Shown: positions 9,462-16,257 of the stretch, piece by piece
Numbering within the stretch: the stretch's first letter is position 1
Layout of the letters: the number at the start of each line of letters is the position of its first letter
Assembly (NCBI GenBank): GCA_024404275.1
Contig: JAKSQG010000018.1
Location: 1-18,948, forward strand
Reading direction: 5' to 3'
Length of the DNA: 18,948 nucleotides
DNA from: Clostridia bacterium
GTDB lineage: Bacteria > Bacillota > Clostridia > Christensenellales > Aristaeellaceae
Notes under the pieces: model-generated
The model's input: only the letters and a program-made list of their open reading frames with translations
The model's database searches: none
Told to the model about the DNA's origin: nothing
Program-made: the position numbers and the translations under genes

Positions 9462-9484
9462 GCCATTTGTGCGGAATGGGAAGA

Positions 9485-9504
9485 AAAATGTAACAAAATG
9501 TAAC
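9485..9504 (+). repeat. Perfect tandem 10-bp direct repeat AAAATGTAAC x2, followed by AAA
   Basis: Read directly from the sequence. It ends 15 nt upstream of the candidate -35 of the ABC operon promoter. Confidence 0.9.
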
Positions 9505-9518
9505 AAACGGACAAATCA

Positions 9519-9555
9519 TTGACTTTTGACAGGTAATATTATAAAATGCCATAAA
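9519..9555 (+). promoter_or_regulatory. Candidate sigma-70 promoter of the ABC/catabolic operon
   Basis: TTGACT (9519-9524), a 17-nt spacer, then TAAAAT (9542-9547). The overlapping alternative is TTGACA (9526-9531), an 18-nt spacer, then CATAAA (9550-9555). This leaves a leader of about 90 nt before the GGAGG ribosome-binding site and the ATG at 9643. Confidence 0.55.
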
Positions 9556-9642
9556 AGGGAAATGTATGCCCGAAATCGACATGAATAGGATCAAAACAGG
9601 TGTACATGTCTCTGAAATTCATTTTCTGAAGGAGGATCCCCC

Positions 9643-10584
9643 ATGAAAAAGGTTCTCGCTCTGGTTCTCGCTCTCGTGATGTGTCTGGGCGTTCTGCCCG
9701 CTCTCGCGGCTGATGCTCCCGTCAAGGTCGGCGTGCTCGTGCCCGTCATGACGCATGGCTGGGTCAGCGGCATCACCTATCAGGCTGAAGCTTATGCCAA
9801 GGAACTGGCTGCTGCCGGCACCATCGAGTACAAGCTCACCACCTCCAGCAACGCCGAAGAAATGACCACCCAGATGGATGAAGCCATCCTGTGGGGCGCC
9901 AAGATCCTGGTCATCGCTCCCCAGTGGACCGGCATGGAAGTGCCCGTTCAGAACGCCATCGATCAGGGCCTCATCGTTGTGGCCTTCGATATGGACATCG
10001 ACGCTGACGGCATCCTGAAGGTCACCGGCGACAACAAGTCCATGGGCGTGGCCGGCGCCAAGTTCATCGTGGAAAAGGTTGGCCCCACCGCTACCGTCGT
10101 GGCGCTGCCCGTTCCCACCAGCGGCTCCGTTTCTGAGCTGCGCATGGCCGGCTTCAATGAGACCATCAAGGACATCGCTCCCGAACTGAAGGTCATCGAA
10201 TACGCGACCAAGTTCACCCGTGAGGATGGCCTGAAGGACTTCGCCGATATCCTGGCTGCCAACCCCCAGATCGACGCTGTGTACTCCCTGGATGACGAAA
10301 CCTCCATCGGTGTCCTGCAGGCCATCGAAGATGCCGGCCGTACCGACATCAAGGCCATCACCGGCGGCGGCGGCTGCCAGGAATACTTCGCCATGATCGC
10401 CGAGAACAAGGACATCGCTGTCAGCTCTTCTCTGTACAGCCCCCTGATGATCCGTGACTGCTTCGACGTTGCCCTGGCCAAGCTGGCCGGCGAGCCCGTT
10501 GAGGCCGTGACCGTCATCCCCTCCCAGATCGTGAGCAGCGAAAACGTTGAAAACTACCTCGATCCCAGCAACACCATCTATTAA
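9643..10584 (+). CDS. ABC transporter sugar-binding protein (PBP type I, RbsB-like, CUT2 family)
   Basis: Signal peptide is MKKVLALVLALVMCLGVLPALAADAP. The type I periplasmic-binding fold pattern is present: VGVLVP, ILVIAP, VVAFD, DAVYSLDDETSIGVLQAI. TAA stop. Confidence 0.85.
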   Translation: MKKVLALVLALVMCLGVLPALAADAPVKVGVLVPVMTHGWVSGITYQAEAYAKELAAAGTIEYKLTTSSNAEEMTTQMDEAILWGAKILVIAPQWTGMEVPVQNAIDQGLIVVAFDMDIDADGILKVTGDNKSMGVAGAKFIVEKVGPTATVVALPVPTSGSVSELRMAGFNETIKDIAPELKVIEYATKFTREDGLKDFADILAANPQIDAVYSLDDETSIGVLQAIEDAGRTDIKAITGGGGCQEYFAMIAENKDIAVSSSLYSPLMIRDCFDVALAKLAGEPVEAVTVIPSQIVSSENVENYLDPSNTIY

Positions 10585-10762: not shown

Positions 10763-12241
10763 ATGAATCTATCCATGAAGGGGATTGTCAAATCCTTCGG
10801 CGCCAATGACGTACTGAAAAAGGTGGATTTTTCACTGGAATCCGGTGAGATCTGCGCCCTGCTGGGAGAGAACGGCGCCGGAAAATCGACCCTGATGAAT
10901 ATCCTGGGCGGTGTCCTTCGACCCGATGCTGGCCAGATCCTGCTGGACGGAAAGCCTGTCACATTCGCTTCTCCGGCACAGTCCCTGAATGCCGGGGTTG
11001 CTTTCATTCATCAGGAGCTGAATCTGATCAACGATCTGCCCGTGTATGAAAACATGTTCATCGGCAGGGAGATCGTCTCCAAAGCCGGGCTCATCAATCA
11101 CAAGGAAGAGCTGAAGCAGACAAAAGAGCTGTTCAGCAAACTGAACATTGATATCGATCCCGCGGTACAGGTGTCCTCCCTGGACGCCAGCTATAAACAG
11201 ATTACCGAAATTTCACGCGCGCTGATGATGGACGCTTCCATTATCATCATGGATGAGCCCACCACCTCCCTGACCGATCCGGAGATCGAGCGCGTTTTTG
11301 ATATGCTCCGTTCCCTCAAAAAACAAAATGTCGGCGTGATCTTCATTTCGCACAAGCTGCGGTAGGTGATGGAGATCTGCGATAAATATGTGGTGCTCCG
11401 CGACGGCAACATGGTGTCCGCCGGCAATGTCAAGGACACCAGCATTGCCGCGCTGTCGCATGACATGGTAGGCCATGATGTGCGCATGGACGCGCTGGAG
11501 CAACGCGCCGCGCGGGGCGGGGAGGTCCTTCGTCTGGAGGATCTGACCCTTGAACCCAGCTACCGCCACATCAACATGCAGGTGTATGCCGGCGAGGTGC
11601 TGGGCGTCACCGGTCTGCTGGGCGACGGGCGCAGCGAGGTCTTCCGCACGGTCTTTGGCGATATGAACAAATACAGCGGCAGGATCTTCCTTTCCGGAAA
11701 GGAAACGGCGATCCGCTCCATTCAGCATGCCATGCAGCTGGGCGTCGGTTATGTGCCGCGCAACCGCAAGGAAAACGCCATTATCAAGGATATGGATATC
11801 CTCGATAACGGCACCATCATCACCATGAAGCAGCTCAGGCGCTTCGGCCTGATCAGCAAGCTGCGGCAGCGGGCCGCCTTCAACAAGCAAAAAGAGGATC
11901 TGCGCATCAAGATGGGCAAGCCCTCCGACCCCATCGGCAGCCTTTCCGGCGGCAATCAGCAAAAGGTCGTTCTGGCCAAATGGCTGATGGCCAAGCCCAA
12001 GCTGCTGGTGCTGGATAACCCGACGCAGGGCGTTGATGTCGGCGCCAAGGAAGAGATCTACGATATTATTCTGCAGCTGGCGGGGCAGGGCGTGGCCGTA
12101 GTGGTGCTGTCCAACGAAGCGCAATAGATCATCCGTGTCTGCAGCCGTGCCCTGGTCATGTACCACGGGGATATCTGCGGTGAGGTTTCCGGCAGCACCA
12201 TGACCGAAGACAACATCATGCGCATGGCCACCGGCGGCTGA
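10763..12241 (+). CDS. CUT2-family sugar ABC transporter ATP-binding protein with tandem NBDs (RbsA/MglA-like, 492 aa). Contains in-frame TAGs at 11363-11365 and 12125-12127.
   Basis: ORFs 10763..11365 and 11366..12127 and the 38-codon tail to the TGA at 12239-12241 all share one frame. NBD1 has GENGAGKST, IIIMDEPT and FISH. NBD2 has GLLGDGRSE, LSGGNQQKV and LLVLDNPT. The total length matches RbsA-type proteins. Confidence 0.9.
11363..11365 (+). other. In-frame TAG codon just after the NBD1 H-loop (candidate sense codon)
   Basis: Context is GVIFISHKLR-TAG-VMEICDKYVVLRDG. As I recall it, E. coli RbsA reads [25 protein letters not shown], which places Glu at this position. Confidence 0.85.
12125..12127 (+). 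other. In-frame TAG codon after the NBD2 H-loop position (candidate sense codon)
   Basis: Context is VVVLSNEAQ-TAG-IIRVCSRALVMYHGDICGEV. As I recall it, RbsA reads [30 protein letters not shown], which places Glu at this position. Confidence 0.85.
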
Positions 12242-12291: not shown

Positions 12292-13323
12292 ATGACGATT
12301 GAAAAACGCAAAAATCCTCTTCGCCAGTTTGTTGACAAGTGGCAGGAGAATCCCCTTATTTCGACCGGTACCGTGCTGATCCTGATGATCATCATCCAGA
12401 CGATCGCGCTGGGCTTCAATTATGCCAGCTTCGGTGAATGGTTTACCAACTGGGGCAAAAACTGGATCAACATCCTGCGCAACAACGCCGGCGTCGGCAT
12501 TGTCGCCCTGGGCATGACGTTTGTCATCATTTCCGGCGGTATCGATCTGGCGGTCGGTTCCACGCTGGTGGCGGTCGGCGCCATCATGATGGTGCTGATC
12601 AACAGCAATGCGGCGGGCGTATTGACGGCCGTCGGCATTACCGGCGTTCCCGCCTTCATCATCGGCATCGCGGCGGCTCTGCTTGCCGGCGCAGCCATTG
12701 GCGGCATCAACGGCGTGCTGATCGCGCGCAGTAAAATTCCCGCCTTCATTGCCACGCTGGGTATGATGAAGATCTGCCGCAGCGTGACGCAGCAGTTCAT
12801 GCAGACGGTCGGCGTGAAGGTGCCCAGGGATTTCCTTGCCATCGCCAACACACGCATCGGCGGCGAGATCATTCTGCCCATCATCTATTGGTTTGTGATC
12901 GCGCTGCTGCTGCACATCGTCTCCAAGCGGACGACCTTCGGCCGTCATGTCTATGCCATCGGTTCCAATGAGCGCGCCGCCCGCCTGTCCGGCGTCAATG
13001 TCGAGCGCGTAAAGACCCTGATCTATGTGCTGTCCGGCGTGCTGGTGGCCATCACCGCGGTCATCCAGATTGCCCGTATCGGCAGCATGGACTACGCCAA
13101 CGCGGGCAGCGGCTACGAAATGGATGCCATCGCCGCGGTCGTGGTCGGCGGCACCAGCATGAGCGGCGGCAAGGGCTCCATTCTGGGCACGGTGCTGGGC
13201 ATGCTCATCATCGCCGTTATGAATAACCTGCTCAACCTGATCGGCGTACCGCCCTTCCTGCGTGAGGCCTTCAAGGGCTTCATCGTGGTGGCGGCCGTGA
13301 TGCTGCAGAAGAAGGAAAAATAA
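12292..13323 (+). CDS. Sugar ABC transporter permease (RbsC/AraH-like)
   Basis: 343-aa polytopic membrane protein with a GGAGGA ribosome-binding site. Family motifs are GGIDLAVGS, RSKIPAFIATLGMM, AIGSNERAARLSGVNV and GGTSMSGGKGSILGT. TAA stop. Confidence 0.9.
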   Translation: MTIEKRKNPLRQFVDKWQENPLISTGTVLILMIIIQTIALGFNYASFGEWFTNWGKNWINILRNNAGVGIVALGMTFVIISGGIDLAVGSTLVAVGAIMMVLINSNAAGVLTAVGITGVPAFIIGIAAALLAGAAIGGINGVLIARSKIPAFIATLGMMKICRSVTQQFMQTVGVKVPRDFLAIANTRIGGEIILPIIYWFVIALLLHIVSKRTTFGRHVYAIGSNERAARLSGVNVERVKTLIYVLSGVLVAITAVIQIARIGSMDYANAGSGYEMDAIAAVVVGGTSMSGGKGSILGTVLGMLIIAVMNNLLNLIGVPPFLREAFKGFIVVAAVMLQKKEK

Positions 13324-13347: not shown

Positions 13348-14385
13348 ATGATTCGTGTTGGCATTGCGGGCTGCGGCAAGATTGCCCAGGTCCGCCATCT
13401 GCCGGAATATCAGGCGAACCCGGATGCACAGATTTAGGGCCTGTTTGACCTCAACGCCGGGCGCGCGGCAGGGCTTGCGGCTCAGTACGGCGCAACGGCG
13501 TATGATACCTTTGAAAGCATGCTGGCCGATCCCATGATCGATGCCGTCAGCATCTGCACGGCCAATGCCGCGCACGCGCAGATGGCCATTGCCGCCCTGA
13601 AGGCGGGCAAGCATGTGCTTTGCGAAAAACCGATGGCCATCACGCTGGCCGACTGTGAGGAGATGGTACGTGTCGCAAAGGAATGCGGCAAGGTGCTGAT
13701 GATCGGTCAGAACCAGCGGCTGGCGGCGGCGCATCAGAAGGCGTATGAGCTGATCCGCAGCGGCGCTATTGGCAGGGTGATCACTTTTACCACCGCCTTC
13801 CGTCATGGCGGACCGGAGACCTGGAGCGTGGATTCCGGCAGCGGTACCTGGTTCTTTGACAAGACTCATGCCGCCTTTGGCGCCATGGCCGATCTGGGTG
13901 TGCACAAAACGGACCTGATCCAGTACCTGCTGGGGCAGACGGTGACCAAGGTGACCGCCTACCTCGGGTCGCTCGACAAGAAAACGCCGGATGGAAAGCC
14001 GATCTCGGTGGATGACAATGCCATCTGCATTTATCACATGAGCGGCGGTGCTGTGGGGACCATGACGGCCTCCTGGACCGATTACAGCGGCGAGGACAAC
14101 GCCACCGTGCTGTTTGGCACGGAGGGCGTGATGCGCATCTATGACGACCCCATGCACAGCATCGTGCTGAGCAAGCGTGACGGCACGACCGAATATTATG
14201 ACGTCGACCGGATTCAGACCAACGACAATCAGACCAGCTCGGGCATCATCGATCTGTTTGTGGCGCATCTGATCGATCCGACCAAGCCGTACATTTCCGC
14301 CGAGAGCGTGCTGCCGGCCATGCGTGCCGTGTTTGCAGCCGCCGAATCCGCCGAAACGGGCCGCATCGTGGCTACGAACGCGTGA
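13348..14385 (+). CDS. Gfo/Idh/MocA-family NAD(P)-dependent oxidoreductase (345 aa). Contains an in-frame TAG at 13435-13437.
   Basis: The ATG at 13348 has GAGG 7 nt upstream. The N-terminus MIRVGIAGCGKIAQVRHLPEY carries the Rossmann GxGxxG motif. After the TAG the same frame continues GLFDLNAGRAAGLAAQYG...VLCEKPMA into ORF 13519..14385. TGA stop. Confidence 0.88.
13435..13437 (+). other. In-frame TAG codon in Rossmann strand beta-2 (candidate sense codon)
   Basis: Context is NPDAQI-TAG-GLFDLN. The family pattern is p.aelvavcD, and this position is variable across the family. Confidence 0.8.
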
Positions 14386-14396
14386 GGAGAAGCACC

Positions 14397-15212
14397 ATGG
14401 ACAGAATCGTTGCAATGAATTCCAACAGCTATCATGGCTTTTCTATCGAGGAGGCCATTGAGGGCACTGCACGGGCGGGCTTCCGCTATATGGAATTGAC
14501 GGCCACCAAGGGGTGGACAGAGCATGTTTTCCCCGATCAGCCCCTGCGCCGTCTGCTGCGTGTGCGGGATATGCTTCGCGATCATGACCTGACCCCGTTT
14601 GCCATGAGCGGTCACACCAACCTGACCGACCCTGCCCGCAGCCGCGATTTTAGGGACAACATCCGTATGGCGCAGCTTTTCGGCTGCCGCTACATTGTTT
14701 CCTCCATCGGCGAGGCACACATCCGGGACGGGCATGAGGCCGATCTGGATGAAACGGTGCGCTGCATCGAAGCCTTTGTGCCCGAGTTGAAGGCGGCGGA
14801 TATGATGCTGGTGCTGGAAACGCACGGGAAGGATCACGGCACAGGCGTCCGTCTGGCTTAGATCGTGCGGAAGGTGAACAGCGATCGGGTCAAAGTGAAC
14901 TACGACACGGCCAACGTCGTGTTTTACGGCCGGGTCGACCCGGTGGAGGATCTCAAGGCCTGCGTGAACGATGTGGCATTTTTGCACATCAAGGACAAGG
15001 CTGGCGCTGCGGACGAGTGGAATTTCCCCGCCCCCGGCAAGGGTTATATTGATTTTGACGGCATCTTTGATGTGCTGAATCAAAACGGCAACAACAGCCC
15101 CTTCTCGGTCGAGATCGAGTTCACAGCGGCCGGTCCTTCCAACCTTGAAGAGGTGAATCAGGCGGTACGCGACAGCGCGGCGTTCTTCCGCGCTCACGGC
15201 ATCGCCCTGTAA
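14397..15212 (+). CDS. Sugar phosphate isomerase/epimerase (xylose-isomerase-like TIM barrel, 271 aa). Contains an in-frame TAG at 14859-14861.
   Basis: GAGGAG lies ahead of the ATG at 14397. ORFs 14382..14861 and 14865..15212 share a frame. The pattern LVLETHG ... TAG ... VNYDTANVVFYG ... FLHIKD ... SVEIEF places the barrel's conserved acidic and His residues on both sides of the TAG. TAA stop. Confidence 0.88.
14859..14861 (+). other. In-frame TAG codon in the middle of the TIM barrel (candidate sense codon)
   Basis: Context is HGTGVRLA-TAG-IVRKVNSDRVKVNYDTAN. Confidence 0.8.
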
Positions 15213-15291: not shown

Positions 15292-16257
15292 ATGAATATT
15301 CTGCTTGTCGGCGCCGGCGGCATGGGCACAACGCACTACAACAACTATCGTCAAATCGACGGCGCGCAGGTCGCCGCCCTGGTGGGAACCACTCAGCAGG
15401 ATCGTGATACCGCTCAGGGCTGGGGCATTCCCTGCTTTGAATCGATCGCACAGGCGGTGCAGGCGGTGGCGGTCGATGCGGCGGATATCTGCGTGCCCAC
15501 CTATCTGCACAAGGAGCTGGCGCTGCAGGCGTTTGCCTGCGGGCTGCATGTGATCTGCGAAAAGCCCTGCGCCCTGAGCCTTGCGGATGGCCGGCAAATG
15601 TTTGAAGCAGCCAAAGCCGCGCACCGGCAGCTGTATGTCGCCCAGGTGGTTCGTTTTACACCGGAAACGGCGGTTCTGCGCCGGGTGATCGAAGAAAAAA
15701 CCTATGGCGCGCCGGTGGACGCGGTCTTTGAGCGGCTGAGCGCCCGCCCCGCGTGGACGCAGGGCTCGTGGCTCATGGAGAAGGAAAAGAGCGGTCTGCT
15801 GCCCTTTGATCTGCACATTCACGATCTCGATCTGGCGGTCAGCCTGTTCGGCGCGCCAAGCGAGGTGCTCATCGCTGCCGAGCACGCCGACGGCGGCCTT
15901 CCGACGCAATGCCGTCTGACCTACAAGTGGGCGGATGGCATGACCGCCTCCGCGGAGGCGGCATGGTTCAATGCCTGCATTCCCTTTACCGCGCGCTGGC
16001 GGGTCAGCTTTGAAAAAGGCATGCTCATCTATGACGGCGAATCCGTCAAGGGCTATGACGCCGCCGGACAGACCGTGACCTATGACACCACCGATCCGGT
16101 CATGATCCCCGGCGGGGCGAACCTTCCCGCCAATGGCTGGTTCTATCGCGAGCTGAGCCATTTTGTCGCCTGTGCGCAGCAGAACACTCCCTCACCGATC
16201 GTGACCGAAGAGCAGGTGCTCGCCGTGCTTTCGGTGCTTGAAGAGATTTCCACCTGA
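15292..16257 (+). CDS. Gfo/Idh/MocA-family oxidoreductase (second copy, 321 aa)
   Basis: AGGAGG lies 8 nt upstream of the ATG at 15292. The N-terminus MNILLVGAGGMG is a Rossmann motif, and VICEKPCA is the family EKP motif. The longer ORF starting at 15235 lacks a ribosome-binding site. TGA stop plus terminator. Confidence 0.85.
   Translation: MNILLVGAGGMGTTHYNNYRQIDGAQVAALVGTTQQDRDTAQGWGIPCFESIAQAVQAVAVDAADICVPTYLHKELALQAFACGLHVICEKPCALSLADGRQMFEAAKAAHRQLYVAQVVRFTPETAVLRRVIEEKTYGAPVDAVFERLSARPAWTQGSWLMEKEKSGLLPFDLHIHDLDLAVSLFGAPSEVLIAAEHADGGLPTQCRLTYKWADGMTASAEAAWFNACIPFTARWRVSFEKGMLIYDGESVKGYDAAGQTVTYDTTDPVMIPGGANLPANGWFYRELSHFVACAQQNTPSPIVTEEQVLAVLSVLEEIST

Follow-up and report, generated by a model that had tools for sequence, protein, structure and literature searches.

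The question raised by this locus is whether the codon TAG still terminates translation in the organism from which it comes and, if it does not, which amino acid it specifies. The window, by which the whole 18,948-base stretch of DNA analysed here is meant, belongs to a metagenome-assembled genome (MAG) of an uncultured Clostridia bacterium, and the gene that poses the question lies at 10763..12241 on the forward strand: it encodes a two-domain sugar ATP-binding cassette (ABC) transporter ATPase of the RbsA/MglA/XylG type, has 492 codons, ends in TGA, and contains two TAG codons in frame. As judged from sequence comparison, TAG is probably translated as glutamate in a narrow lineage of gut Clostridia. 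The first-pass annotation of the window had proposed Glu or the near-isosteric Gln as the decoded residue; this proposal held and could be narrowed to Glu by the GAG and GAA partners of TAG in related strains, by the invariant Glu columns on which TAG falls, and by the lack of any exchange with CAG.

The two TAG codons of the ATPase are located as follows.

11363-11365, forward strand: TAG at codon 201, four residues past the H-loop His of the first nucleotide-binding domain (NBD1)
12125-12127, forward strand: TAG at codon 455, the equivalent position of the second domain (NBD2)

Translation of 10763-12241 gives the contexts FISHKLR-TAG-VMEICDKYVVLRDG and VLSNEAQ-TAG-IIRVCSRALVMYHG, exactly as they had been quoted. 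The RbsA segments and the MglA motif SHKMEEIF, given for comparison in the first-pass annotation, agree letter by letter with the E. coli K-12 genome (NC_000913.3), and the XylG motif given there as SHKMDEVF was wrong, the actual one being SHKLNEVK (NC_000913.3). The claim built on these segments, namely that both TAGs sit on a conserved Glu, was borne out: RbsA, MglA, and XylG all possess Glu at both aligned columns, and so do 52 of 52 orthologues from other genomes, which share 55–97% identity with the window protein. In a wider set codon 201 corresponds to Glu in 80/80 relatives, and codon 455 corresponds to Glu in 62 versus Val in 16, the latter being distant paralogues.

Aligned from end to end with RbsA (501 aa), the 492-codon frame shares 179 residues with it, which indicates a one-chain architecture with two NBDs, and in the orthologue from contig L134, the outgroup of the strain comparison given below, the domain PF00005 is found twice. 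The motifs GENGAGKST, IIIMDEPT, ISHKLR, LSGGNQQK, and LVLDNPT are present in the window ATPase and each of them is common to all 52 orthologues, with Walker A, Walker B, H-loop, and signature motifs matching throughout this set. Fused NBDs, canonical motifs, and location in an operon with a BPD_transp_2 permease and a Peripla_BP_4 binding protein characterize the ATPase as a member of the CUT2 type. A separate observation concerns the NBD2 motif LVLDNPT (window 12004-12024, codons 415-421), in which Asn replaces the catalytic Glu after Walker B; since this Asn occurs in 52/52 orthologues, the second ATP site appears to be degenerate throughout the subfamily.

Contigs of the same lineage were recovered from independent samples by exact-protein look-ups and one genome scan. 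The contigs L001-L004, L139, L140, and L149-L151 are 96–99% identical to the window, while L005, a contig of a second MAG, is about 92% identical. The codons observed at TAG sites in the window, in these contigs, and in the outgroup are the following.

ATPase, codon 201: TAG in the window, L001, and L139; GAG in L005 and GAA in the outgroup
ATPase, codon 455: TAG in the window, L002, L003, and L139; GAA in L001 and L005 and GAG in the outgroup
GGDEF/EAL/PAS signalling protein (GGDEF), codon 818, 326-328, reverse strand: TAG in the window; GAG in L005
GGDEF, codon 225: TAG in L005; GAG in the window
Xylose-isomerase-like TIM-barrel protein (TIM2), codon 160, 14859-14861, forward strand: TAG in the window, L005, and L149; GAC in the outgroup
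Surface protein, codon 686, 6168-6170, forward strand: TAG in the window, L150, and L151; no sense codon seen
Surface protein, codon 1360, 8190-8192, forward strand: TAG in the window and L150; no sense codon seen
Gfo/Idh/MocA oxidoreductase (GFO1), codon 30, 13435-13437, forward strand: TAG in the window only; TGG in L002, L003, L004, L005, L139, and the outgroup

TAG is gained and lost among the strains, chiefly through exchange with GAG or GAA. Glu codons are the partner at 4/5 polymorphic TAG sites, and CAG is the partner at none of these five. GAG makes up 20% of the sense codons that lie one mutation away from TAG in these genes, and the probability of at least four Glu sources among five polymorphic sites is 0.007, a value that disregards transition bias (CAG and TGG turn into TAG by a transition, GAG by a transversion). 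The TAGs recur in independent samples of several SRA and ENA studies and are kept across 8% nucleotide divergence; ERZ27247129 and SRR27361835 are among the samples in which the lineage is present.

Outside the ATPase, the family column of GGDEF codon 818 contains Glu in 19 of the 25 closest homologues and in 24/46 overall, with the homologues continuing past this codon (..EPVEFSTY..), and the column of GGDEF codon 225 contains Glu in 18/25 closest homologues. At TIM2 codon 160 the relatives possess E (10), D (7), K (3), Q (1), and G (1). A ninth TAG site was identified beyond the window, in a GH94 chitobiose-phosphorylase-like gene of L149 (..VVQYVR-TAG-TGDAAF..), where TAG aligns with Glu in all five PDB homologues with alignments shown (KYVMETGE, KYIAETGN, AYIKETGD in two of them, and AYIKESGD). 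The column log-odds for four sites are +6.6 bits for Glu, −4.5 for Val as the next-best residue, and −11 for Gln. Altogether, Glu is the consensus or closest-relative residue at 6/7 informative sites, the exception being Trp at a variable site. The five window TAGs outside the ATPase had originally been set aside as saying nothing about the amino acid; this does not apply to GGDEF-818 and TIM2-160, which favour Glu, or to GFO1-30, which replaces Trp, and it remains true of surface protein codon 686, for which no homologue aligned among six matches of at most 35% identity. Surface protein codon 1360 is matched by Asp in the sole spanning homologue, P0002, a weak comparator with 31% identity.

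The TAG-bearing genes are intact and under purifying selection, and TAG is the sole stop codon inside them. Seven in-frame TAGs are spread over 5/12 window genes; in-frame TAA or TGA and frameshifts were found in none of the twelve, whose terminators are TAA in five cases and TGA in seven. Between the window and L005 the ratio of nonsynonymous to synonymous substitution rates (dN/dS) downstream of the TAGs is 0.04–0.14, the same as upstream. Homologues of the surface protein, the GGDEF protein, and the GH94 protein extend uninterrupted across the TAG positions, and the cell-wall sorting signal of the surface protein is located 3' of its second TAG.

With regard to the scope of the phenomenon, no in-frame stop was present in 93,222 aligned residues of 61 loci from other species, versus seven, all of them TAG, in 8,847 residues of the lineage loci. 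These counts imply that the standard code is in use in the sister species, which share about 75% protein identity, and that only the lineage departs from it. No shared flanking motif was found around the TAG sites, and the analysis for downstream stem-loops of PYLIS or SECIS type gave no consistent structure (z-scores from −0.1 to −1.3, with one at −3.4), which speaks for TAG being decoded generally and not through a site-specific recoding signal. The density of TAG is about 1.2 per 1000 codons, corresponding to about 2% of the Glu codons in the window. As a terminator in the sister species TAG accounts for 10/243 stops (about 4%), and the clade avoided TAG ahead of any reassignment. In the two non-coding frames of the window genes the TAG trinucleotide is also scarce (6 occurrences, versus 29 of TAA and 377 of TGA).

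The window has a GC content of about 57% and contains 12 genes, which besides the ATPase are the following.

230..2779, reverse strand: GGDEF/EAL/PAS signalling protein (domains by Pfam), 849 codons with the TAG at 326-328 read through
2970-3890, reverse strand: TIM-barrel isomerase
4113..8366, forward strand: surface protein with Cna_B and FctA domains, a signal peptide, a sorting signal of PVPDTG type, and two in-frame TAGs
8440-9423: LacI regulator
9643-10584: sugar ABC transporter binding protein, Peripla_BP_4
12292-13323: sugar ABC transporter permease, BPD_transp_2
13348..14385, forward strand: Gfo/Idh/MocA oxidoreductase (GFO1) with one in-frame TAG
14382..15212, forward strand: xylose-isomerase-like TIM-barrel protein (TIM2) with one in-frame TAG
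15292-16257: second oxidoreductase
16334-18253, reverse strand: S41 peptidase
18374-18754, reverse strand: HIRAN protein

The nearest relatives of the source MAG carry Christensenellales annotation. The surface-protein region (window 4028-8382) is wholly missing from L005, where its flanks are directly joined, and occurs together with both TAGs in L150 and L151, so the surface protein represents a strain-variable island. The HIRAN and S41 genes, direct neighbours in the window (18254-18373), are separated in L149 by about 3.3 kb (6700-10000), and this insert codes for a TetR regulator, an FAD-binding protein, and an FMN-binding protein.

In GenBank the protein run MCQ2453377-385 skips the ATPase, GFO1, and TIM2, the ATPase being without protein accession between the sugar-binding protein MCQ2453382 and the permease MCQ2453383, and the GenBank versions of the GGDEF and surface proteins stop at the first TAG, with 817 aa and 685 aa (residues 1-685), respectively. 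The GGDEF gene of L005 is also split in its annotation, into pieces of 224 and 619 aa. The public record thus handles the TAG genes as pseudogenes or truncated proteins, and these missing and shortened entries are what can be cited for the explanation that the TAGs arose as ordinary nonsense mutations in genes undergoing decay. Such decay is quite improbable, considering that TAG is used exclusively, without TAA, TGA, or frameshifts, that downstream dN/dS stays at 0.04–0.14 with all catalytic motifs intact, and that the TAGs persist across 8% nucleotide divergence and many samples, with a sorting signal preserved beyond the second TAG of the surface protein. It is extremely improbable that the TAGs are artefacts of sequencing or assembly, for example G to T errors: GAG to TAG is indeed a G to T change and the GFO1-30 TAG is confined to the source MAG, but the same TAGs were assembled independently in different runs and studies (L001-L003, L139, L149-L151, and the L005 MAG), GAA to TAG takes two changes, and errors of this kind would make TAA and TGA too.

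The other explanations accept read-through and differ from glutamate in the residue inserted or in the way of its insertion. Glutamine, as in code 15, could be delivered by a suppressor derived from tRNA-Gln or by near-cognate tRNA-Gln(CUG); recoded phages are reported to translate TAG as Gln, which is near Glu in size and occurs at TIM2-160 in 1/22 relatives. This meaning is unlikely, because no TAG has a CAG partner, though CAG (162 codons) is about as frequent as GAG (175 codons) and CAG to TAG is a transition, because Gln is found in 0 of the 52–80 relatives at both ATPase columns, and because its log-odds stand at −11 bits versus +6.6 for Glu; the TAG sites display neither the Gln-dominated columns nor the exchange with CAG or CAA that code 15 implies. 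It is also considered unlikely that no dedicated tRNA is involved and that, owing to weak TAG termination or loss of release factor 1 (RF1), near-cognate tRNAs (Gln, Tyr, Lys, Trp) decode the codon slowly and with ambiguity, the TAGs accumulating as slightly harmful mutations. The TGG to TAG change at GFO1-30 is compatible with near-cognate reading as Trp, and so is the low number of TAG codons with slight harm, but the position of 6/7 informative sites on Glu, which is invariant at some of them, and the dominance of GAG would be left unexplained; moreover, the C36-U1 mismatch makes tRNA-Glu ill-suited to near-cognate reading of UAG. Pyrrolysine (Pyl) is the only sense meaning known to be given to TAG naturally by cellular prokaryotes. 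For archaea, a code in which all TAG are read as Pyl has been proposed, according to the abstract of a preprint (bioRxiv 10.1101/2024.09.30.615893). For the present lineage this meaning is very improbable, as the TAGs fall on invariant Glu and swap with GAG or GAA, pyl genes are absent from the window, and the downstream sequences have no consistent structure.

Several points weigh against reading TAG as glutamate. The whole case is made at the level of nucleotide and protein-family comparison. No tRNA gene was found in the window or the lineage loci, and hence no tRNA(CUA) there; tRNA genes were likewise not found in the 55 Christensenellales-like loci scanned, out of 80 from the genome scan. 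The sample is small, with nine distinct TAG sites, of which seven have a comparator, and surface protein codon 1360 depends on one distant homologue. At GFO1-30 TAG replaces Trp; the 44 relatives vary at this column (A, T, I, V, W, L, C, R, S, Y, H, M), and Glu and Gln are not among their residues. This single TAG off acidic positions is private to the source MAG and may be a tolerated Trp-to-Glu change, a harmful change, or a sequencing or assembly error. Finally, no TAG terminator occurs in about 25 lineage genes (12 in the window and about 13 in L005 and L149, counted from open reading frame tables), an absence that carries no weight because only about one would be expected at the 4% rate.

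If TAG does specify glutamate, the decoder would most simply be a dedicated tRNA with the anticodon CUA on a tRNA-Glu body. The anticodons of Glu and Gln tRNAs (YUC and YUG) differ at position 36 alone, where the non-discriminating glutamyl-tRNA synthetase (GluRS) of bacteria is relaxed (PMC2978374), and CUA would differ from the Glu anticodon CUC once, at this same relaxed position (PMC2978374). Bacterial GatCAB separates Glu-tRNAGln from Glu-tRNAGlu via the U1-A72 pair and the D loop, not via the anticodon (PMC2811023), and a tRNA-Glu body, with its G1-C72 pair and extra D-loop base, would therefore avoid conversion to Gln (PMC2811023). Provided that the host uses the indirect Gln pathway, a CUC to CUA change in one tRNA-Glu gene copy would create a Glu-inserting amber suppressor in a single step, and the rarity of TAG terminators, at the level of about 4% in the sister species, would keep the cost of codon capture low. 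With TAG amounting to only about 2% of Glu codons, the reassignment gives the impression of a recent event that has not yet run to completion.

A scan for tRNAs that combine a D arm like that of Firmicutes tRNA-Glu with a CUA anticodon gave matches in phage contigs. A 50-mer conserved across the lineage has no match in the JGI metagenomes, so the tRNA scan of these metagenomes could return unrelated sequences only. One phage, represented by L144 and L099 (OCVV010999695.1, IMGVR_UViG_3300021400_001383; 36-kb genome, GC 0.53), has in-frame TAGs in structural genes, and at L144 9637-9708 (reverse strand), overlapping L099, it encodes a tRNA(CUA) whose D arm resembles that of tRNA-Glu and whose variable loop has 4 nt. 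Its capsid TAG (FIP-TAG-LW) corresponds to Glu in 109/115 homologues, and in comparison with two related phages its five TAG columns are E/K, E/TAG, A/G, T/E, and E/E (E/E in the major tail protein, E in a MuF-like protein). These columns, most of which contain Glu, suggest that Glu-reading amber suppression may also exist in phages. No link was found between this phage and the lineage of the window; it is a speculative idea that the enabling tRNA-Glu(CUA) of the lineage may be of phage origin. Overall similarity to co-encoded tRNAs did not assign the phage suppressors to a type, the identities being 0.64–0.70 to Glu, Gln, Asn, and Thr tRNAs alike. Two other contigs, L141 and L143 (Ga0326512_10000036 and Ga0326512_10001941; GC 0.35), which probably derive from large phages, have arrays of 13–15 tRNA genes, each including a tRNA(CUA) beside an ordinary tRNA-Glu and, in L141, also a tRNA-Gln.

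Among the known recoding systems, the bacterial TGA codes are code 4 (TGA to Trp; found in Mycoplasmatales and other groups, among them, as recently reported, Eggerthellaceae) and code 25 (TGA to Gly; Gracilibacteria/Absconditabacteria). The system proposed here would resemble them as a chromosome-wide conversion of a stop into a sense codon in a bacterial lineage, for which standard annotation gives split or "pseudo" genes, and would differ in the codon, in the amino acid, in the very narrow lineage affected, relatives at about 75% identity being standard, and in the rarity of the codon. Pyrrolysine decoding in bacteria and archaea also reads TAG as sense; it requires pylTSBCD and is normally limited to methylamine methyltransferases, whereas here the TAGs occupy Glu positions of unrelated protein families. 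Amber-recoded phages (code 15; crAss-like, Lak, and others) likewise use TAG as a sense codon in prokaryotic-type genes, and this recoding is usually served by a suppressor tRNA(CUA). Phage recoding as described by Borges et al. comprises TAG to Gln and TGA to Trp only. Unlike in those phages, the present TAGs are found in chromosomal housekeeping and transport genes of a bacterium, and their columns contain Glu, not Gln. The same assignment exists in eukaryotes: peritrich ciliates (table 30) and Blastocrithidia (table 31) possess UAR-to-Glu codes, in which UAG is assigned to Glu as is proposed here. These are nuclear codes in which UAA is reassigned too, whereas in the window TAA is still the terminator of 5/12 genes. 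For trypanosomatids UAG to Glu is served by a tRNA-Glu with altered anticodon, as stated in the abstract of PMC12153298.

No report of a bacterial TAG-to-Glu code was found in the literature searched. The bacterial stop-codon changes that we know of, including those in this literature, all involve TGA. Bacteria are credited with three genetic codes in the abstract of a 2024 preprint. If true, a chromosomal TAG-to-Glu code would be a new pair of codon and amino acid for Bacteria, and the natural Glu-inserting amber suppressor pair that it implies would be of interest for genetic-code engineering.

For the lineage itself the consequence is practical as well, since annotation turns working genes into pseudogenes or truncated proteins, and the completeness estimates, metabolic reconstructions, and protein catalogues derived from it would be wrong. 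On balance, and judging by the new TAGs that appear between strains 97–99% identical, the lineage seems to have been caught in the middle of converting TAG from stop to Glu; its code would then be the first stop-to-Glu code in Bacteria, and its strains would offer codon capture as a natural time series. If this is correct, an early stage of reassignment is visible, in which the codon is rare and polymorphic among strains and the sister species retain the standard code; the codon-capture and ambiguous-intermediate theories both require such a stage and seldom have one to consider.

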